A stretch of DNA of 64,000 nucleotides from Verrucomicrobiota bacterium (lineage in GTDB: Bacteria > Verrucomicrobiota > Lentisphaeria > Oligosphaerales > Oligosphaeraceae): assembly GCA_019136135.1 (NCBI GenBank), contig JAGVUR010000156.1, forward strand, positions 533 to 64,532. Direction: 5' to 3'. A program made the position numbers and the translations under genes. Position 1 is the first letter of the stretch; each line of letters opens with the position of its first letter. Below the pieces are notes generated by a model. That model was not told where the DNA came from. It saw only the letters and a list, made by a program, of their open reading frames with translations, and made no database searches. This document shows, one piece after another, positions 1,912 through 52,302 of this stretch.

Positions 1912-3168
1912 TTATTTTTCCGGGTAGAGGTATTTGAGCATCAGCAGCATCGCATGGACCTGGTGTTGGACGTTGTCAATTCTCACCAGGGGATTGTTGG
2001 GCGCCGCCGTGATGCCTCCGTAGGCTTGTTCGGGCACGTTTTTGAGTCCCATCAGGTAGGGGTTGTATTGCATCAGCGGTCCTTTGTATTGGCAGAGGGT
2101 CAGCCGCGCCATGATTGTTTCGAGCAGTGGCTTCAGCCTATCCTGCGCCTGTTTGTCTCCAATGATGTTGGCGCATCTCCATGCCGATGCGAGTCCTTCG
2201 ATTGCGTAGGCCACGTTTCCGCGTTTTGTCTCGATCAGGTTGTCGTCGATTTGCCACCATGCGAGTGCCAGCGCGGCGTCCGCGGCGAGTTTTGCGTGTG
2301 GTTCCCATCCTGCTTCGAGGTATTCCGCGAAGGACATTGATCCCCATTGGTAGAATCCCTTTGTGAGTTCCTGGTCTCCGTCGGGCTCCCATGTTTGGAC
2401 TGTATACCTGTGGATGAGCCTTGGGAGTGCGAAGTTGATTCTCCTGATCAGGTCTTTCCTGTTGAATTGCCGTGCGATCTTGCAGTATGCGAGCAGGGCT
2501 TCACCGTCGTAGTACGAGCTTGGCACTGGCTTTCTGATGCCTGAAGCAAGTTCATATGCTCGGGACCATGAACCGTCATCCAGTTCCATTGACCTTAGGA
2601 AGTTGACGTGCGTGAAGAGCAGTCTTCTGAACTTGTCCTTTGTGTTTTGGTCCAGGTACTTGTCCTGTCCTGCTAGGAAATCGGTCAGGGCCAGGCAGAA
2701 GAGGGCGACTGTGCCGGTGTTCAGGTTTTTTTCGCCCGGGTAGGTGATGACTGTTTCGCCTGTTGGGAGCGTTTTGACGTTGTTGATGAAGAAATCGAAT
2801 CCGAGCAGGACCGCCCTTCTTGTTGGTTCGTTGAAGAAATCCCTGTTGAGGCAGGAGAGTCCCCATAGTGCCCCGGCCTGGCGGACCTGGTTGTCGTCGT
2901 CGTCAACCATTCCTGTTGTGATATCCAGGAGGTAAGTGAAGTTGCCTGCCGGCTTTTGCTGGTTGAGATAGAACGTCCTTGCCGCCTCGATGGATTGGAT
3001 CAGGATATCCCGGGTCAGCGGCGGCACCTCGGCCCTGCGCTGCCAATACCCGTCCTCAAGATATTTCTGCAAGGACTCGGAGGTCTTCTCGATGCTCTCG
3101 AAGCTATTTGCTTGCCCAAATGATGGCAATGACAGCGCCATGCAGGCGACACACGCCAATCTCAACAT
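1912..3168 (-). CDS. secreted hypothetical protein
   Basis: Long ORF with a signal-peptide-like N-terminus, MLRLACVACMALSLPSFGQA, when started at the ATG at 3168. I could not recognise a confident family. Confidence 0.55.
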   Translation of the reverse strand: MLRLACVACMALSLPSFGQANSFESIEKTSESLQKYLEDGYWQRRAEVPPLTRDILIQSIEAARTFYLNQQKPAGNFTYLLDITTGMVDDDDNQVRQAGALWGLSCLNRDFFNEPTRRAVLLGFDFFINNVKTLPTGETVITYPGEKNLNTGTVALFCLALTDFLAGQDKYLDQNTKDKFRRLLFTHVNFLRSMELDDGSWSRAYELASGIRKPVPSSYYDGEALLAYCKIARQFNRKDLIRRINFALPRLIHRYTVQTWEPDGDQELTKGFYQWGSMSFAEYLEAGWEPHAKLAADAALALAWWQIDDNLIETKRGNVAYAIEGLASAWRCANIIGDKQAQDRLKPLLETIMARLTLCQYKGPLMQYNPYLMGLKNVPEQAYGGITAAPNNPLVRIDNVQHQVHAMLLMLKYLYPEK

Positions 3169-3326
3169 CCATATACCTGATCTAGCAATCACGACTTTTG
3201 CCCCTTTTGTTGAACGGCTCCCTAAAGAACTCTGTCCCCTTTCCTTGCCACAAACATTTCTTGAATTACATTAGTTCATTTTTTGTATTTTGCACCAAAA
3301 ACCAGGAAATTCAGTGCTTTAGGACA

Positions 3327-4142
3327 ATGGAACGGATCAATTTTCATACGCACACGTACTTGTGCAAGCATGCTGACGGGGTTCCCGCGGACTATTGCCG
3401 GGAAGCCATCGAACAAGGCGTTGCGGTATTGGGTTTCAGCGACCACACGCCTTATCCTGTGGAGCGCTGGAGCAGCGTGCGGATGGATATCGAACAGCTC
3501 CCGCAGTACGTGGAATGGATCCGCCAGGCGCAAGAAGACTTCCCGCAGTTGAAGATTGTCATGGGAATGGAGTGCGAATACGATCCCGAGTACATGAATT
3601 TTTTCATGGACGAGTTGGTTGGCAAGTGGGGATGCAAGTACTTGATAGGGGCGGCGCACCATTACCTGAGCAAGGGGGAATGGGTTGGCTTGTACGGTCG
3701 CTCGATGGACGATAGGCTTCTTTGGGACTACACGGATTATCTGGTCGAGGGGATTTCGAGCGGGAAATTCCTGTTTTGGGCGCATCCGGATGTTTTCGGC
3801 GTCTGCTATAGGGGTTGGACTTCGGAGGCTGACGCTTGTTGCAAGGCGATTTGCGAGGCGGCGGTGTCGGCTGACGTTCCCTTGGAGATCAATGGCTATG
3901 GGTTGCGGAAGCCGATGATCGAGGATTCAGGCGAAATGAGGTATCTCTATCCCCTTCGGAAGTTCTGGGATGTTGCCGGCGAGGTTGGAGTCAAGGTTGT
4001 TGTCTGCAGCGATGCCCATTCTCCGAAAGACGTTTGGAACAATACGGACGACTGCGTCGAATGGGCGGAGCGGGTAGGCTTGCAGGTGGTCAACGAGGAA
4101 TTGGCGCGCCAACTTGATTCACTTGATTTCGCGAAACCTTAA
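3327..4142 (+). CDS. PHP-family histidinol-phosphatase-like hydrolase
   Basis: MERINFHTHTYLCKHADG...LGFSDHTP...GMECEY...AHPD...CSDAH are PHP metal-ligand motifs. The ATG at 3327 was chosen by homology to the N-terminal HxH motif. Confidence 0.85.
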   Translation: MERINFHTHTYLCKHADGVPADYCREAIEQGVAVLGFSDHTPYPVERWSSVRMDIEQLPQYVEWIRQAQEDFPQLKIVMGMECEYDPEYMNFFMDELVGKWGCKYLIGAAHHYLSKGEWVGLYGRSMDDRLLWDYTDYLVEGISSGKFLFWAHPDVFGVCYRGWTSEADACCKAICEAAVSADVPLEINGYGLRKPMIEDSGEMRYLYPLRKFWDVAGEVGVKVVVCSDAHSPKDVWNNTDDCVEWAERVGLQVVNEELARQLDSLDFAKP

Positions 4143-45788: not shown

Positions 45789-46023
45789 TGTGGCTCCTTA
45801 CTAAATTTTGGGTTTGGGTGGGTTGCGAAAAACTAAAATATAGTGTGTTCGGCTAGATTTTTCCAGAGTTGGAATTAGCAGGCTTCTCAAGAAATCATAG
45901 TTATCCCAGCTGTTCAGCTTTTGCGGTCAAAAATGATATTTGGAAGTCAACATTTGAGGATGTCGGATTATATTACATTTTTCGGCGGGCAAGGGAGGTT
46001 CGGATCATGCAGGAATACGTCAG

Positions 46024-46506
46024 ATGGAAGAATGTCTCGAGCCTTGTTTCAATATTGTTTTGGTCGCCCCTGAGATTCCCCAGAATACGGGTACGATCGG
46101 TCGTTTGTGTGTTTGCACGGATGCGTCTCTACACTTGATTCGCCCGTTGGGGTTTTCCTTGGACGAGGCTCATGTTCGCAGGGCAGGGCTGGATTACTGG
46201 CCGTACTTGAACCTGAACGTCTATGAGAATTGGGACGATTTCCTGGAGCGCGCCCAGCCTGGGCGGATGATTTTCTGCAGCACGAAGACGGAACGCAGTT
46301 TATACGACTATCGTTTTCAGGAAGGCGATTGGCTTGTATTCGGCAACGAGGGGCATGGGTTGCCGGTCGAGTTCTATGAGCGTTATCGCGACCAGTTGTT
46401 TACCATCCCGATGCCTGGCATCCATTGCCGGAGTCACAACTTGGCGAATTCGGCTGCCATTGCCTTGTACGAAGGGTTGCGGCAAACTCGGTTTTCAGTG
46501 CGATAG
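46024..46506 (+). CDS. trmL: tRNA (cytidine/uridine34-2'-O)-methyltransferase (SpoU/TrmL)
   Basis: [21 protein letters not shown]...LHLIRPLGF...VFGNEGHGL...[12 protein letters not shown]. Confidence 0.88.
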
Positions 46507-46553
46507 TATTTGTAGTTTTTCGTAGTAAAGAAGCGAAATTGGAGAAGCGAACG

Positions 46554-47387
46554 ATGTTCTTGATAGGTTGTCACTTGAGTATGGCGAATGGATTTGTCCA
46601 GATGGGCAAGGATGCGTTGTCCATTGGAGCGAATGTATTCCAGTTTTTTTCCAGGAATCCACGTGGGGGCAAGGCGAAGCCCATCGACCCCAAGGACGTT
46701 GAGCAATTCCTGGAGATGTGCGATGAACATCAATTCGGTCCCTTGCTTGCCCATGCGCCGTACACCCTGAATGGATGCTCGGCAGACCCGAAAATCCGGG
46801 AGTTTGCCACAGCGACAATGCGGGATGACCTGGAGCGAATGGAGCATACCCCGGGAAACTTGTACAATTTCCATCCCGGAAGCCATGTCGGCCAAGGCAT
46901 TGAAGCCGGAATCGAGATGATCGTGAAGATGCTGAACGAGATCATGTTCTCGGATCAGCGGACGACTGTGTTGCTGGAGACGATGGCAGGCAAGGGGTCC
47001 GAGGTAGGAAGTCGATTCGAGGAATTGCGCCAAATCATCGATGGGGTTACGCTTGCCGAGAAGTTGGGTGTCTGCCTCGATACCTGCCATGTCAATGATG
47101 CAGGATACGATGTTGTCAATGACCTGGATGGCGTTTTGGCCGAATTTGACAAGGTTATTGGCTTGTCGCGCCTCAAGGCTATCCATCTGAATGACAGCAT
47201 GAATCCGCTGGGGGCCAGGAAGGATCGGCATGCGGTGATCGGAGGCGGACACCTTGGGGTGGAGGCATTGGCGAGGGTCATCAATCATCCGCTCTTGCGC
47301 GCCCTTCCCTTCTACTTGGAGACGCCAAACGAATTGCCTGGATACGGCAAGGAAATCAAGCTGCTGAAGGAATTTAGGAAGGAGTAG
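46554..47387 (+). CDS. nfo: endonuclease IV
   Basis: IGCHLS...[11 protein letters not shown]...HAPYTLN...FHPGSH...[10 protein letters not shown]...[11 protein letters not shown]...HLNDS. Confidence 0.9.
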
Positions 47388-47414
47388 GTTAACTTTTTCG
47401 GGAATTGCCCTCAC

Positions 47415-47490
47415 ACCATTTCTTGCAGATTTAAAGCGCGACTTCAAATCTGCAAGAGTGGTGCCGGGATAATCACAGTAGCAATAAACC
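47415..47490. repeat. 76-bp direct repeat, left copy (island boundary) with a 16-bp-stem hairpin
   Basis: ACCATTTCTTGCAGATTTAAAGCGCGACTTCAAATCTGCAAGAGTGGTGCCGGGATAATCACAGTAGCAATAAACC. It aligns with 50523-50598. Confidence 0.85.
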
Positions 47491-47690
47491 TAAAAAACAG
47501 CTGGCGTCCATCAGTCAATCGGTTAAGCTAGGTACGGGCACCCGGGGTGCTCGTACTCAGGCGGTTTCGCCGCTAAAGCGGCGAAACTGGGGCGTTCCCG
47601 GTCGGACGGGCGAGCAAATTTGCCCTGTTTCAAAGCAAGACGGGTTTAGGTACGGGCACCCAGGGTGCTCGTACTCAGGCGGTTTTGGAA
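47491..47690. repeat. composite REP/MITE block: MITE left end, two REP hairpins and one 10-bp-stem hairpin
   Basis: TAAAAAACAGCTGGCG at 47491; REP copies at 47530-47558 and 47648-47676; GTTTCGCCGC-TAAA-GCGGCGAAAC at 47564-47587. AATTTGCCCTG and CAAGACGG(T/G)TT(T/C)AGGTACGGG are shared with 20600-20660. Confidence 0.8.
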
Positions 47691-47903
47691 TTCATTTTTT
47701 ATTTTTATTTTTTTACATTTTTTAAAAATTTTATTGTTGTTTATCCTTGAAATACAGCATGTTATGAATATTATATTTAAATAATTTTTAATTTATTTTT
47801 ATAATTTTTATATTGAGGCTATTAATTACAAGGCAAGGTGTCAAAAAGACAGAATTTACAATAAAGATGTCAAAATAAAATATGAATGGCATGTTAATTA
47901 TTG

Positions 47904-48092
47904 ATGGAAATTCATTTGCTGAATCATAGTAAAGCAGGAAATCTCTTCAGTAGCATAGGAGGTTTTATTTCAAATACGATAGAAGGAGTGTGGGATATAG
48001 TTATGGAAAAAATAGCAGGAGTGGACTATAAAATTATAATCAAAGATAACACATCTATTCCAGATGGAAGTTTCCTCCGCCCTAAACAATAA
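47904..48092 (+). CDS. orphan small protein in the AT-rich block (uncertain)
   Basis: An open frame in very AT-rich DNA. An internal ATG at 48003 has a better RBS (GAAGGAG). I recognise no family. Confidence 0.3.
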   Translation: MEIHLLNHSKAGNLFSSIGGFISNTIEGVWDIVMEKIAGVDYKIIIKDNTSIPDGSFLRPKQ

Positions 48093-48162
48093 TAGTCGAG
48101 GTGCAACGAAATGAACCCTGAAAAAATTATAATTTCAGAGCATCAACTTTTTTTGGGGGCAG

Positions 48163-48726
48163 ATGAAGTCATTGCTTAGTTTGCTCAAAAAACATCCCAA
48201 AATAAGGTTGAGGACCTTTGTCTTAGTTACAATTATATTGCTCTTTATTTGTGTTTTGCTTATTCTTTTAAACGGTAATATCGATGAAAGTGGATATGCG
48301 AGTAATTTTGATAAAGTCCCTGGAATACAAGAAAAAAAAATCTTTGTAGATAAGATTGCTGTGGAAAATAATTTATTTTTTTATAGAATTGGATGGTTAG
48401 AAAACTGGAGTTTATATATAATAGGGAAATTTACATCAGAAACAACATCTATTTTTTTCAGTAACCCTAATACTTTTGGATTGTCAACACCTCGAATTAG
48501 CTATCAAGATCAAATACCTATAAGTTCTTGTCCTTGGACATTTAAGAATATTCCAGTTGATATCGCAAGTAAACTAAAATTGCGTCGAGAGGACAAGTTA
48601 TATTACTCTGACTTGGATGATAATCTTATATTATTTGAAAGTGGTTATGAAAAGTTCCATATAAGAATTTATTTGTTGGGCAGGAGTGGATATTTTATAA
48701 TATCTATTATCCATAATACACGATAA
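48163..48726 (+). CDS. orphan membrane-anchored protein in the AT-rich block
   Basis: MKSLLSLLKKHPKIRLRTFVLVTIILLFICVLLILL (N-terminal TM) followed by a roughly 150-aa Asn/Ile/Tyr/Phe-rich domain. Codon usage is unlike the rest of the window. Confidence 0.5.
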   Translation: MKSLLSLLKKHPKIRLRTFVLVTIILLFICVLLILLNGNIDESGYASNFDKVPGIQEKKIFVDKIAVENNLFFYRIGWLENWSLYIIGKFTSETTSIFFSNPNTFGLSTPRISYQDQIPISSCPWTFKNIPVDIASKLKLRREDKLYYSDLDDNLILFESGYEKFHIRIYLLGRSGYFIISIIHNTR

Positions 48727-48937
48727 ACCGCATGTTTGGAGCAAATAATCATTTAGAACTCAAATGACTGTTTCTCGAACAATATGCATATTTTTATATG
48801 CCTTATGACTACGGCAATCTTCGCACAGGTCCTGTCCAACTCGCCTTTTTCTGCCACCCTAGGTGAGTTTCTGTTGGCGCATCAGGGAATTTCATGGGTG
48901 CCTCCAGCATGCCGTTGCCCGTACCATGACTGCCTGT

Positions 48938-49063
48938 TCATGGCATTGACGGCATAAGGTCAAGCTTCGCGCAATGGAAAAGGATGGCGTTTCGGAAAGA
49001 TTCTTTGTTCCTAAATCCGCAGATCGACCGCTTGATTGACTCGATCTTGTTGTTCAACCCTTG
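48938..49063 (-). pseudogene. C-terminal remnant of an ISL3-family (IS204/IS1001/IS1096/IS1165-type) transposase
   Basis: The minus-strand translation QGLNNKIESIKRSICGFRNKESFRNAILFHCAKLDLMPSMP* matches the conserved ...EGxNNKIKxxKRxxYGFRNxxxFxxRI... tail. The frame is closed immediately upstream. Confidence 0.6.
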
Positions 49064-49315
49064 TCAAGGGCCGCATCAAAATGAGCCACCTATGGGTCGC
49101 ATCAAAACGCAACATCGATGATGCAACCAGCACTTGGCTTCCTGGTTTGCTGCACCCTTGCTTGACGCAATGCCGAAGCGTTTAGCTCAATATTTCGCAA
49201 GAATTGACTTGGTGGCATCTATGAGCTTCTGAAAAATACAAAGGAATACCTTGTTCCTAGCGATTCGCACGGACTTCGTGAGACCCTTGGCTTCGACGGC
49301 GGACTATGCGGGGTG

Positions 49316-50476
49316 TCAATCGACTATTTGGGCGGCGTCTTTGAAATTGATGTATTTCACGTCGTTACTGATTGGGGTCATGTCACCGCTATAGACTACA
49401 AAACCACTGGTGAATTTGGGTGATAGCTTTCGCAGTTTGCAGATGTTGGCGGCGAAGTCTTTGTTCCAGGTCATCGCGCCCTTGATTTCGGTTGGAATCA
49501 GCTGGTCGGGTGCTTTACGGAACAGGAGATCGACTTCGGTACCGGCGGAGTCGCGGAAGAAATACAAATCGGGTTCCTTGCCGGCGTTGCAGCGTGCTTT
49601 CAAGGCTTCGAGGACCACCATGTTTTCAAACAATCCGCCGAAGAGCGGATCGCGGGCAACTTGCGCTGGTTCGCGAATGCCGAGAAGCCAGGTTGCCAGG
49701 CCAATTTCGGTAAAGTAGAGCTTTTGGCTCTTAAGCAGGCGCTTGCCGAAATTTTCGTAATAGCAGGGCAGACGGAAAATGATGAAACTAGCTTCCAGTA
49801 TCGAGAGCCAAGCTTTGATTGTGGATGAAGAAACCCCGATATCGTTTGCCAGGGAGCTAAGGTTCAGCAATTGTCCGCAACGACCGGCCAGCAGTTTCAT
49901 GAAAGTCTCAAAGGTGCTGAGGTTGTTCAGGTTTGCTATTTGCCTGACGTCTTTATCGATGTAAGTGGCAAAATAGTCGCTGTAGAGGGTATGCGGTTCC
50001 AGCACGGTTCGGTAGGCACGCGGCATGAACCCCTTGTACAGATAGTCGTCTCGCTCCATGGTGATGCCGGCATCGCTCAGCTCTTGGATGGATAGCGGCA
50101 GCAAGCGCAATAAGCCAGTGCGTCCTGCCAGCGACTGCGAGATACCAGCACTAAGCTGTGGCTGATGGCTCCCAGTGAGTAGGTACTGGCCATTCATTCC
50201 TGATTCATCGACCATCGTTTGAATGTAACTCAATAGCTGCGGTACCCGTTGAATTTCGTCAAGGATGACTGGTGCCGGATAGGCCTGTAAAAACGCTCTG
50301 GCGTCGCTTTCGGCAAGGGCGCGAATATCGGGACTCTCTAAACTGACATAGCGCAAGTCCGGAAACGTGGTTCTGGCTAAAGTGGTTTTTCCTGATTGTC
50401 GGGGCCCGGTGATGGTAACAACGGGGTAGCCAGCCCAGAGATGCAAGAGTTGCTTTTGGATCTTTCGTGGAATCAT
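49316..50476 (-). CDS. AAA+ ATPase with DUF4143 domain
   Basis: VVTITGPRQSGKTTLA (Walker A), VILDEIQRVP (Walker B), and the typical C-terminal ...EVDLLF... module. Confidence 0.85.
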   Translation of the reverse strand: MIPRKIQKQLLHLWAGYPVVTITGPRQSGKTTLARTTFPDLRYVSLESPDIRALAESDARAFLQAYPAPVILDEIQRVPQLLSYIQTMVDESGMNGQYLLTGSHQPQLSAGISQSLAGRTGLLRLLPLSIQELSDAGITMERDDYLYKGFMPRAYRTVLEPHTLYSDYFATYIDKDVRQIANLNNLSTFETFMKLLAGRCGQLLNLSSLANDIGVSSSTIKAWLSILEASFIIFRLPCYYENFGKRLLKSQKLYFTEIGLATWLLGIREPAQVARDPLFGGLFENMVVLEALKARCNAGKEPDLYFFRDSAGTEVDLLFRKAPDQLIPTEIKGAMTWNKDFAANICKLRKLSPKFTSGFVVYSGDMTPISNDVKYINFKDAAQIVD

Positions 50477-50522
50477 GTCGTGCCTCCGTCATTGTGACTG
50501 GCTATAAGATAAACCGTTTCTT

Positions 50523-50598
50523 GCAAATTTAAAGTACGACTTCAAATCTGCAAGAAAAGGTGGCAAAATAGTCACAGTAGCAATAAAGACGGAGATTG
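50523..50598. repeat. 76-bp direct repeat, right copy (island boundary)
   Basis: ACCGTTTCTTGCAAATTTAAAGTACGACTTCAAATCTGCAAGAAAAGGTGGCAAAATAGTCACAGTAGCAATAAAG. Confidence 0.85.
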
Positions 50599-50622
50599 TT
50601 TTTCCAAATTTGGAGAGTTGGA

Positions 50623-51468
50623 TTAGCCTTCCAGGAACACGTTGTCGATCAGCCTTGTTTTGCCGAAGTATGCCGCGCAGGCCAGCAATGCGGGACGATC
50701 GATGGTTCCGTCGATTGCCCTGAGAGTATCTTGCGCGACGAGTTCGACGTAGTCGATTTTCCCGCCGGCTTCCTGGATGGATTTAGCTAGGATTGCCTTG
50801 AGGGCGTCCGGGTTTTTCTCGCCGTTGTTGAATGCTTTTTCGGCGCTGAAGATTCCCTTTGAGATGGCGAGTGCGCGATTTCGTTCGTCTTCGGAGAGGT
50901 ACCTGTTCCGCGAGCTTCTGGCGAGTCCATTGTCTTCCCTGACCAGTGGCGCCATAATGATATCAATGGGCACGTTGAGGTCGCGAACCATCCGCTTGAT
51001 GATCAGTGCCTGCTGGGCGTCCTTTTTCCCGAATACGGCGACTTGTGCGCAGGTGATGTTGAAGAGCTTAAGTACGACGGTGCAGACGCCCCTGAAGTGA
51101 ATTGGCCTGGACAGTCCGCAAAGGGATTGCGACAGCGAGTCTTCGGAGACCCAAGTAGAGAAGTCGGGCGCGTACATTTCATCGGGCGTCGGATAAAAGA
51201 TTGCATCGACTCCTCGAGCTTCGCAGAGCTTTTCGTCACGCTCGAAATCCCGTGGATACTTGTCAAGGTCTTCGTTGGGAGCGAATTGCGTTGGATTGAC
51301 GAAGATTGAGACGACGACCTTGTCAGCGTTCTTTCGGGCGATATCGACCAGCGAGAGGTGTCCTTCGTGCAGGAATCCCATGGTCGGGACGATGGCGACC
51401 TTGAGGTTGCTGGCGTGCCAGGCGTCGCATACCTGACGTGTTTCGGCGACAGTTTTGCAGATTTGCAT
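50623..51468 (-). CDS. panC: pantoate--beta-alanine ligase
   Basis: VAIVPTMGFLHEGHLSLV...VSIFVNPTQF...FGKKDAQQ. Confidence 0.93.
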   Translation of the reverse strand: MQICKTVAETRQVCDAWHASNLKVAIVPTMGFLHEGHLSLVDIARKNADKVVVSIFVNPTQFAPNEDLDKYPRDFERDEKLCEARGVDAIFYPTPDEMYAPDFSTWVSEDSLSQSLCGLSRPIHFRGVCTVVLKLFNITCAQVAVFGKKDAQQALIIKRMVRDLNVPIDIIMAPLVREDNGLARSSRNRYLSEDERNRALAISKGIFSAEKAFNNGEKNPDALKAILAKSIQEAGGKIDYVELVAQDTLRAIDGTIDRPALLACAAYFGKTRLIDNVFLEG

Positions 51469-51501
51469 GATCAATCAGGGTTATTAGCTTTGGAAAAGAA
51501 T

Positions 51502-52302
51502 TTAGTTTGCGGAGTTTTCCTCTGCCGGGAAGGTTGAATTTTCCACTTGTTTTTTGTATTCTGCGAGTGCATCCAGGGTGATTTGCCCTAGGTCTGCAAA
51601 TTTCTTTGCGTGTCTTGGAATGAAAGCGCCGCCCAGGCCAAGTATGTCGGTAACGACTTGGATTTGTCCGTCGCAGTAGGGGCCTGCTCCGATTCCGATC
51701 GTTGGAATCTTGAGTGTCTCGGTGATGGTTTTCGCCAGGAGTTTTGGCACGCCTTCGAGTACGACAGCGAAGGCGCCTGCTTCTTGGACTGCGAGTGCAT
51801 CGTCGATGATTTGCTGTGCTTCCTCGTTTCGCCCGTGAATTCTGTATCCTCCGTCTTTGAGTACGGATTGCGGCAGGAGTCCCACGTGTCCGAGTACGGG
51901 AATAGAGGCTTCGGTAATTCGCTTGATTGTTTTGAGCATCGCCGTTCCGCCTTCCAGCTTGACGCCGTCGGCGCCGGTTTCCTTGAGGTAGCGCCCTGCG
52001 TTTCTGACGGCTTCAGCTTCGGAAACCTGGTATGACAGGAATGGCATGTCGCCGATGACCATCGCATTCTTGACGCCGCGCTTTACTGCAGCCGTGAGCA
52101 TCAATGATTCCTCCAAGGTAACGGGGATCGTGTTTTCATAGCCGAGAACCGTATTTCCTGCGGAGTCGCCGACGAGGATGAGCTGAAAGCCAGCCTGATC
52201 GACAAGCCTTGCGGTGATGGCGTCATAGGCGGTAATGGTCGTGATTTTGCGTCCTTCGGCCTTCATCTTGGCCAGATCGCGAACTGTGTAGCGCCTTTCC
52301 AA
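51502..52302 (-). CDS. panB: 3-methyl-2-oxobutanoate hydroxymethyltransferase
   Basis: ITAYDAITARL...ILVGDSAGN...GDMPF...VKLEGG...GHVGLLPQ. The TTG start at 52302 is supported by AAGGAGG 6 nt upstream. Confidence 0.92.
   Translation of the reverse strand: MERRYTVRDLAKMKAEGRKITTITAYDAITARLVDQAGFQLILVGDSAGNTVLGYENTIPVTLEESLMLTAAVKRGVKNAMVIGDMPFLSYQVSEAEAVRNAGRYLKETGADGVKLEGGTAMLKTIKRITEASIPVLGHVGLLPQSVLKDGGYRIHGRNEEAQQIIDDALAVQEAGAFAVVLEGVPKLLAKTITETLKIPTIGIGAGPYCDGQIQVVTDILGLGGAFIPRHAKKFADLGQITLDALAEYKKQVENSTFPAEENSAN

Follow-up and report, generated by a model that had tools for sequence, protein, structure and literature searches.

Two copies of a hairpin-bearing direct repeat bound an island of mixed DNA in a Verrucomicrobiota bacterium of the family Oligosphaeraceae, and the question that they raise is what such a repeat is for and how it came to stand on both sides of the island. 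The island lies between nfo and panC in the stretch of 64,000 nucleotides analysed here, hereafter the window (GenBank assembly GCA_019136135.1, contig JAGVUR010000156.1, positions 533 to 64,532), and it holds a gene for an ATPase-nuclease with AAA_14 and DUF4143 domains. An earlier note, made from the sequence of the window alone, took the repeat for a duplicated structured intergenic or small-RNA target; that identification is not supported, as the hairpin is borne by the cargo, stands before related ATPase genes across phyla and bounds the unit that different genera share. We find instead that the hairpin is the cognate palindrome of a clade of ATPase genes and that palindrome, leader and gene have been exchanged horizontally among genera as one compact unit, of which the island is probably a decayed example.

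The direct repeat itself is real. Its two copies, R1 and R2, are identical at 63 of 75 aligned positions (84%) with a single 1-nt gap, in agreement with the four-fifths identity that the earlier note had estimated, though the second copy, which it placed at 50523-50598, begins 10 nt earlier, at 50513. A BLAST search with the 75-mer against the 4.74-Mb, 217-contig assembly returns R1 and R2 as the only copies (E 6.5e-16), so that this is not a dispersed high-copy repeat such as a repetitive extragenic palindrome (REP) or a miniature inverted-repeat transposable element (MITE), which are present in many copies per genome. The features on which the argument turns are listed below; all coordinates are window positions, dyad mismatches are given on the plus strand unless stated, and G000 and G003 denote the window's genome and its sister genome.

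47415..47488, no strand assigned: R1, the second, gene-less repeat copy (63/75 match to R2; covariance model 43.2 bits)
47421..47457, no strand assigned: R1 dyad core, 16-bp arms and 5-nt centre, 15/16 paired (DNA fold -18.5 kcal/mol, z -6.8)
49316..50476, minus strand: 386-aa AAA_14/winged helix-turn-helix/DUF4143 ATPase-nuclease (Pfam AAA_14 2e-27, DUF4143 8.8e-45)
50513..50587, no strand assigned: R2, the resident repeat copy between the panC stop and the ATPase start (93% identical between G000 and G003)
50519..50555, no strand assigned: R2 dyad core, the cognate palindrome of the ATPase (covariance model 46.8 bits; minus strand TTGCAG-16 nt-TAAATT)

The arms of the R1 dyad (47421-47436/47442-47457) form 15 of 16 Watson-Crick pairs and those of the R2 dyad (50519-50534/50540-50555) 14 of 16, in each case around a centre of 5 nt (CGCGA / TACGA) and not the 6-nt loop described previously. 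The stems read TCTTGCA(G/A)ATTTAAAG / CTTCAAATCTGCAAGA, and as single-stranded DNA both copies fold with z-scores of -6.2 to -8.1 against dinucleotide shuffles. Two details of the earlier description are confirmed, namely that both copies share the terminal sequence CACAGTAGCAATAAA and that the dyad mismatches of both are A.C on the plus strand and become G.T (G.U in RNA) on the minus strand. On the coding strand of the ATPase, R1 consists of a 33-nt extension followed by the palindrome and then by 6 nt. R1 and R2 can also be read as terminal inverted repeats with 44-nt arms that are 82% complementary, because the palindrome is its own inverted repeat.

The nature of the hairpin emerges from the relatives of the ATPase. 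We gathered 80 loci encoding such relatives (39-99% identity) from genome contigs of Lentisphaerota, Kiritimatiellota, Verrucomicrobiota, Betaproteobacteria, Desulfobacterota, Spirochaetota, Synergistota and others, and looked through the 130-220 nt ahead of every ATPase start for its strongest inverted repeat. About 60 of the 80 loci, reaching down to 40% identity, spanning at least eight phyla and including plasmids, have a dyad with 13-16 of 16 positions paired and an odd centre upstream of the gene, and the distance from its centre to the start codon is constant within each clade, at 17-29, 38-49, 58-64 or 77-82 nt. The R2 palindrome conforms to this arrangement, lying 42 nt upstream of the start codon of the window ATPase and just past the panC stop. 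The arm sequence of the window's clade is CTTGCAGATTTGAAGT; other clades have CAACAAATTTCAAGT, CGGCAGATTGAAAGT, GGGCTAATCGAAAGT, TGGACAAATTTAAACT or AGACAAATTGGCAAT, with both arms changing together, and the family as a whole has 16-bp arms, a 3-5-nt centre and the consensus half-site CA.AT(T/C)..AA.T. Conservation extends to 44-50 of 56 sequences at the positions C-13, A-12, A-10, T-9, A-5, A-4 and T-2 and at their mirrors. In an alignment of 51 sequences 15 of the 16 dyad pairs vary on both sides and 89% of cells pair, compared with 67% in column shuffles and 25-48% in slid-partner controls, although these pairing statistics are inflated by construction, the alignment being made of the best palindrome picked per locus.

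Three checks are independent of that choice: the constant position of the dyad, its rarity elsewhere and its detection outside the training set. A covariance model built from the alignment matches at the ATPase-upstream position in 52 loci (E <= 0.01) and at only six places elsewhere in 696 kb of flanking DNA. It also matches sequences outside its training set, among them R1 and the loci L031, L052, L053, L056 and L076, as well as the plasmid loci L143 and L146, and in whole-genome scans it finds palindromes directly beside ATPase genes in seven genomes (G007, G008, G013, G019, G020, G021 and G024). By this model the window's own genome has three palindromes and its relatives 0-3 each. Twenty more distant DUF4143 paralogues in the relatives (31-49% identity) have no upstream palindrome above shuffle level, which argues that the palindrome is specific to this ATPase clade and not to all DUF4143 proteins. 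The palindrome is the cognate site of this clade, to which it is physically linked, and it diversifies together with the protein. At one locus (L027; G009:C104:21366-21776) the ATPase is a relic of which only the first 47 codons are left (68% identity), and an intact family palindrome precedes it by about 230 nt.

The protein encoded next to R2, single-copy in the assembly, can be assigned to a described family. DUF4143 has been classed as a PD-(D/E)XK family of unknown function (PMC3424549), and PDC-S01, which combines an ATPase with a PD-(D/E)XK domain, is the fourth most common defence candidate, though experimentally unvalidated (PMC12988326). The window ATPase matches the PADLOC profile of PDC-S01 (PDLC04790) with an E-value of 3.6e-94 over residues 1-367 of 386, and both of its domains score above the Pfam gathering cut-offs (AAA_14, 96.2 bits against 27; DUF4143, 152.7 bits against 28.1). 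The Walker A motif GPRQSGKTTL is invariant across 30 homologues. The alignment of these homologues and an AlphaFold2 model built from them (pLDDT, the predicted local distance difference test, 91) place a PD-(D/E)XK signature on the β-strands of residues 314-332, with D316 and K332 invariant and E330 conserved in at least 90%. The model comprises an AAA+/STAND-like NTPase, a helical and winged-helix region at about residues 186-255 and a C-terminal α/β PD-(D/E)XK domain, and its top Foldseek matches are PAB2304, STAND NTPases (Apaf-1, Avs, MalT), Orc1/Cdc6 and RuvB; no close sequence relative was found among solved structures, and NCBIfam has no model for the protein. With a full-length profile match, both domains and the catalytic signature in place, the ATPase is, judged by its sequence, a clear member of PDC-S01 / COG1373 and a candidate anti-phage ATPase-nuclease. 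No cis element for DUF4143 or PDC-S01 is described in the literature that we searched, where the family is treated as a bare single gene.

How much DNA travels with the gene can be read from closely related copies. ATPases in four other genera of the same family (G008/G019, G013/G024 and G017) are 89-93% identical to that of the window, and pairwise DNA comparisons reveal a single homologous block, reaching from -77..-85 to +1160..+1184 relative to the start codon, that is, from the outer edge of the palindrome to just past the ATPase stop. Outside this block the flanks are unrelated, except within a genus, and the other contents of the island are absent from the genera that share the ATPase. 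The leader between palindrome and start codon is conserved together with the gene in five genera. In window coordinates the unit and its leader are as follows.

49298..50559, minus strand: minimal shared unit of palindrome, leader and open reading frame (ORF), 83-88% identical in DNA to G008, G019, G013, G024 and G017
50477..50518, minus strand: ATPase leader between palindrome and ATG, with the Shine-Dalgarno sequence GGAGG (CCTCC at 50483-50487 on the plus strand), as read from the sequence

Third-codon identity between genera is 0.66-0.70 for the ATPase, whereas panC and nfo give 0.41-0.54 even when species within the window's own genus are compared. For G000 against its sister G003, the value is 0.90-0.92 for ATPase, panC and nfo alike. 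These contrasts indicate that the palindrome-leader-ORF unit has passed horizontally from genus to genus and that its inheritance since the split of G000 and G003 has been vertical.

ATPase homologues are also present on 258 plasmid records. On plasmid pEMTOL02 of Emticicia oligotrophica (L146; NC_018749.1 52229-53395) one lies in opposite orientation between the arabinose-operon genes araD and araA, with its palindrome abutting the ATG and with spacers to araD and araA of 58 and 40 nt. The 16.8-kb Wolbachia plasmid pWALBA2 (L145; NZ_CP101659.1) carries a 45%-identical homologue beside two genes for Rpn-family recombination-promoting PD-(D/E)XK nucleases and one for a RelE/ParE toxin. Within two genera, synteny is lost precisely where the palindrome has its outer edge (L025/L026, G008 vs G019; L035/L033, G013 vs G024); the former break is marked by an extra segment of about 1 kb with a uroporphyrinogen decarboxylase gene in G019, the latter by a 123-nt indel.

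That the window has a second copy, R1, is not without parallel. Two homologues, L051 (65% identity) and L065 (56%), have a second copy of their own palindrome 20-50 nt past the ATPase stop, and L081 has one at +1428. In L067 and L047 the second copy is upstream and the two copies enclose a vapBC pair or a small ORF, and in all five loci the repeated unit is essentially the palindrome alone. In L067 (Betaproteobacteria MS502-43, 2597-3964) two palindromes bracket vapB-vapC, encoding an AbrB-type antitoxin and a PIN toxin, directly upstream of the ATPase and downstream of nqrF, an arrangement that looks like a short cassette array. The L051 locus permits an empty-site test: six relatives have both flanking genes 161-303 nt apart and no ATPase, and at these sites the palindrome model finds no match, the native spacer containing an unrelated short hairpin. 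Both palindromes of L051 therefore came with the insert. Cruciform resolution was considered as the source of the two copies and rejected, as the L051 copies share the same asymmetries and are direct copies. When the L051 genome (G041) is compared with G049 (G049:C71:18768-21937), the upstream flank is 99% and the downstream flank 81% identical, a contrast that places the end of a recent recombination tract at the cassette site.

The island as repeat-bracketed accessory DNA, as the earlier note had described it, is supported by its two-copy repeat and by the same layout in the sister genome G003. A metagenome scan with the clade palindrome found three G003-like contigs only, of the same layout and broken at the same places in its AT-rich and insertion sequence (IS) DNA. 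Between G000 and G003, R2 is 93% identical and R1 80%, and in G003 there is an indel in one arm of the R1 dyad. This faster divergence points to little constraint on R1, and the 16% divergence between R1 and R2 corresponds roughly to decay since shortly before the G000/G003 split from an exact duplication.

We therefore consider it probable, though by no means assured, that the island is a horizontally transferred one-gene palindrome cassette that was later filled with debris, R2 being its operator and R1 a decaying bracket. The compact unit, passed between genera of Lentisphaerota and further afield, would have entered the space between the convergent nfo and panBC genes before the divergence of G000 and G003. 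R2 would be the working copy, an operator that overlaps the promoter and to which a dimer binds, the simplest means being the winged helix of the ATPase itself; in this way a potentially toxic nuclease would regulate its own expression. R1 would be the second, downstream bracket of the palindrome-gene-palindrome form of the cassette, which insertions of REP, AT-rich and IS DNA would later have parted from the gene. We infer, rather than observe, how the second palindrome copy is made.

Several observations weigh against this explanation, beside the inflated pairing statistics mentioned above. Most homologues (>90%) have the upstream palindrome alone. The 33 nt of R1 and R2 outside the palindrome are absent from the cassettes of other genera, which sits ill with a bracket made of the palindrome only. 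The hexamers in R2, TTGCAG-16-TAAATT, match the consensus at 7 of 12 positions, and a sigma-70 scan called no promoter. That R1 arrived with the cassette is argued by analogy with L051; among the relatives of the window's genome no empty nfo-panC junction was found, nfo and panC being in non-syntenic contexts in G001, G002 and G004 of the same genus, and an exact-protein look-up of PanC for further such junctions gave no match. Finally, palindromes upstream of other genes (C111, L047 and L081) could mean that the palindrome has a role beyond control of the ATPase.

Of the competing explanations, we regard as unlikely, though deserving of serious attention, the one in which the unit integrated at a resident solo palindrome. 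The chromosome would have held 33 nt and a palindrome, the footprint of an earlier cassette, with which a circular or linear palindrome-ATPase unit recombined, site-specifically or through short homology, leaving R1 and R2 as attL/attR-like hybrids. Gene-less family palindromes of the kind required do exist, in contig C111 of the window's own genome, in G001, G005 and G015, in contig C102 of G003 and twice in G004, mostly between convergent ordinary genes; the 33-nt extension is common to R1 and R2 and is not part of the cassettes of other genera; and the synteny breaks in G008/G019 and G013/G024 fall exactly at the outer edge of the palindrome. However, the empty sites of L051 have no palindrome and no recombinase is encoded in or adjoining the island: inspection of the ORFs and Pfam matches of 47415-50587 found orphans, IS fragments and the ATPase, with no tyrosine or serine recombinase gene or remnant, as the earlier note had observed. 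The 16% divergence of R1 and R2 fits decay since before the G000/G003 split, so that the copies may have begun identical. The solo palindromes are equally explained by deletion between two brackets; they could be such leftovers or could be landing sites. There is no synteny with G002 at the solo palindromes of G004 and G001, where a REP repeat also confuses the region. The solo palindrome of the window's own genome, its third (C111:8825-8869, L112; same site in G003:C102, L118:3046-3090), reads CCACCAATTCAAAGT-tgt-ATTTTGAATTGGTGG and precedes, by about 110 nt, a gene whose product is lipoprotein-like (MTAPKSFF...LALAGC), with no ATPase nearby.

It is rather doubtful that the ATPase-nuclease is the mobility enzyme of a minimal selfish element made of self-mobilising palindrome-gene-palindrome units. 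The winged helix would then bind both palindrome copies, the AAA+ domain would bring them together and the PD-(D/E)XK domain would cut, the units being excised and inserted with the help of host repair, and solo palindromes would be the footprints of lost cassettes. If this were true, PDC-S01 would be, at least in part, a new class of recombinase-free mobile gene.

An improbable alternative is a local segmental duplication of the 33 nt, the palindrome and the ATPase, followed by loss of one ATPase and by the insertions, with the orphan promoter left by chance. The extension of the repeat 33 nt past the palindrome is in its favour. A further trace lies in the extension of R2, where 50560-50580 (GTGGCAAAATAGTCACAGTAG) matches 49965-49985 within the ATPase gene (GTGGCAAAATAGTCGCTGTAG, codons YSDYFAT) on the same strand at 19 of 21 positions, a match that none of 300 shuffles reached and that falls to 14 of 21 in the extension of R1; these sequences suggest illegitimate recombination at the site. 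On the other hand, the scheme requires a deletion of the whole ATPase stopping 6 nt past the palindrome and 27 nt from the nfo stop, a search of the island found no ATPase pseudogene fragment, and a second copy limited to the palindrome recurs independently in L051, L065 and L081. A search of the island for longer, diverged duplicates of the ends of panC or nfo found none.

We find it highly improbable that the palindrome acts at the RNA level, as a terminator of panC, as a structure in the 5' untranslated region (5'-UTR) of the ATPase, or both, with R1 as a second terminator serving the convergent transcripts of nfo and the ATPase. A terminator scan picks out R2 on the minus strand (19 pairs, 4 of them G-C, with the T-rich tail CGGTTTATCT), the mismatches of both window copies are G.U on the coding strand, a T-run follows the downstream copy of L051 and several solo copies lie between convergent genes. 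Yet R1, which has no T-tail, is not flagged, and a scan of 46000-52000 against Rfam at E <= 10, the check for a structured RNA that the earlier note had proposed, returned only chance matches to miRNA and sRNA families, far below their gathering scores. The mismatches on which the note had based a structure read from the minus strand show no strand asymmetry across the family: 56 distinct members have 51 G.T and 36 A.C mismatches (binomial p = 0.13), and 60 transversion mismatches besides. Moreover, the conservation of particular positions across phyla fits sequence-specific recognition of a DNA dyad by a dimer and not mere folding. In members from Desulfobacterota, Spirochaetota and Bacteroidota the dyad ends 0-5 nt from the ATG, too close for a 5'-UTR hairpin to fit ahead of a ribosome-binding site. 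Such dyads resemble a whole promoter of leaderless-type geometry; one example is TGGACA-17-TAAATT, which the A of the ATG follows after about 7 nt.

The palindrome thus has dyad symmetry, conserved half-sites and a fixed place relative to the start codon, as expected of an operator, and we conclude that it is a DNA-level dyad at the ATPase promoter. It may act as an operator, and the dyad may be bound by the winged helix that the model predicts in the ATPase; since no gene was seen to be conserved beside the ATPase homologues among the loci compared, the enzyme's own winged helix is the simplest candidate binder.

Most improbable is the model of the earlier note, in which R1 and R2 are attL and attR of a larger integrase-bearing element that lost its integrase and duplicated a chromosomal RNA or intergenic site, for although the two-copy direct repeat does surround accessory DNA of mixed composition including IS debris, and the idea of a bracketed accessory segment stands to that extent, there are no integrase-type features or remnant, the hairpin accompanies the ATPase in other genera, in other phyla and on plasmids, it has neither an Rfam match nor a family-wide strand asymmetry, the L051 empty sites have no palindrome, and nothing else of the island is common to the other genera that bear the ATPase.

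The island contents that had been described (a REP block, an AT-rich orphan block, an ISL3 remnant and the AAA+/DUF4143 ATPase) are all present; those not yet listed are given here with the flanks.

46425..47387, plus strand: nfo (AP endonuclease 2 / xylose-isomerase-like TIM barrel), left chromosomal flank (PF01261, E 1.4e-52)
47491..47690, plus strand: pair of REP/MITE-type units of a dispersed family, two 39-nt copies of 97% identity, abutting R1
47691..48726, plus strand: AT-rich block of 28% G+C with orphan ORFs at 47901-48092 and 48163-48726
48727..49315, minus strand: mosaic of IS and repeat fragments with a C-terminal remnant of an ISL3-type transposase at about 48938-49063 (translation GLNNKIESIKRSICGFRNKESFRNAILFHCAKLDL)
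50623..51474, minus strand: panC, right chromosomal flank, upstream of the ATPase on the same strand (PF02569, E 2.7e-103)
51502-52302, minus strand: panB, on the same strand as panC and the ATPase

Read along the coding strand of the ATPase, the order is panC, R2, ATPase, IS debris, AT-rich block, REP pair, R1 and the end of nfo, which is antisense, nfo being convergent with the panBC-ATPase strand. The start of the REP block, a block also present in G003, matches more than 30 contigs of the assembly by BLAST, and we read the REP pair as a secondary insertion abutting R1. The beginning of the AT-rich block is common to the G000 island and G003; Pfam and PADLOC searches with its ORFs gave no family match. 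Pieces of the mosaic at 48727-49315 match contigs C183, C193 and C50 of the same genome, and the ISL3-like C-terminus within its IS fragments reads GLNNKIESIKRSICGFRNKESF. A perfect 12-nt palindrome, TCCAAATTTGGA, lies at 50602-50613, between R2 and the panC stop codon.

Among bacterial and archaeal candidate defence genes, PDC-S01 is reported to be one of the most abundant, and there has so far been no account of its control, of the DNA that it recognises or of its mode of spread (PMC12988326, PMC3424549). The palindrome, which is cognate to the protein and diversifies along with it, is a concrete candidate for both its ligand and its regulatory site, and the bounded unit, the bracketed form and the solo palindromes together make a testable model of gene movement and loss without a recombinase. 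For annotation, hairpin-bearing direct repeats beside such ATPases should not be taken for att sites or small RNAs. The window, itself a decayed example, adds to the picture of the family an exact unit of transfer, evidence of horizontal transfer, an argument for action at the DNA level and, through L051, a palindrome-free empty site.

Compared with PDC-S01 as it has been described (COG1373; AAA_14 and DUF4143), the window ATPase has the same domain fusion and matches the profile, but its clade has a cognate palindrome and sometimes a second, bracketing copy. Integron cassettes are likewise promoter-poor single genes bounded by imperfect palindromes in unrelated contexts, sometimes with toxin-antitoxin modules adjoining, as in the palindrome-vapBC-palindrome-ATPase order of L067. 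In contrast to attC, however, the palindrome here is upstream of the gene and tracks the phylogeny of the protein, there is no IntI, attI or array in the window region, attC-type core sites and bottom-strand asymmetry are absent, and the empty site of L051 holds no site. An attC cassette was therefore rejected: integrase, array and strand-specific features are missing, and the palindrome precedes the ORF. The REP/REPIN elements with their RAYT are similar in that a single-copy nuclease-type gene is flanked by its own palindromes and a few gene-less copies lie elsewhere, but here there are 2-3 copies per genome and not tens to hundreds, the enzyme is an AAA+/PD-(D/E)XK fusion and not a Y1 HUH enzyme, and mobilisation is putative.

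Restriction-modification genes are autoregulated through controller (C) proteins acting on C-boxes, and toxin-antitoxin operons are autorepressed at their operators. These systems share with the present one a promoter-overlapping palindromic operator before a potentially self-harmful nuclease gene, its diversification along with the system, and residence on a mobile unit; they differ in having a separate small regulator, in place of which the candidate binder here is the winged helix of the enzyme or a host factor. Restriction-modification units in Helicobacter were reportedly found by Nobusato et al. in 2000 to enter by 'insertion with long target duplication', and there too a transposase-less, defence-type unit is flanked by direct repeats of tens to hundreds of bp. 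The repeat in that case is target DNA, whereas in the window the palindrome core comes with the gene and only the 33-nt extension could be target-derived. By these analogies the repeat appears most like the promoter-overlapping operator of a mobile nuclease gene, comparable to C-box control, and its bracketed form resembles the recombinase-free units that insert with a long duplication.

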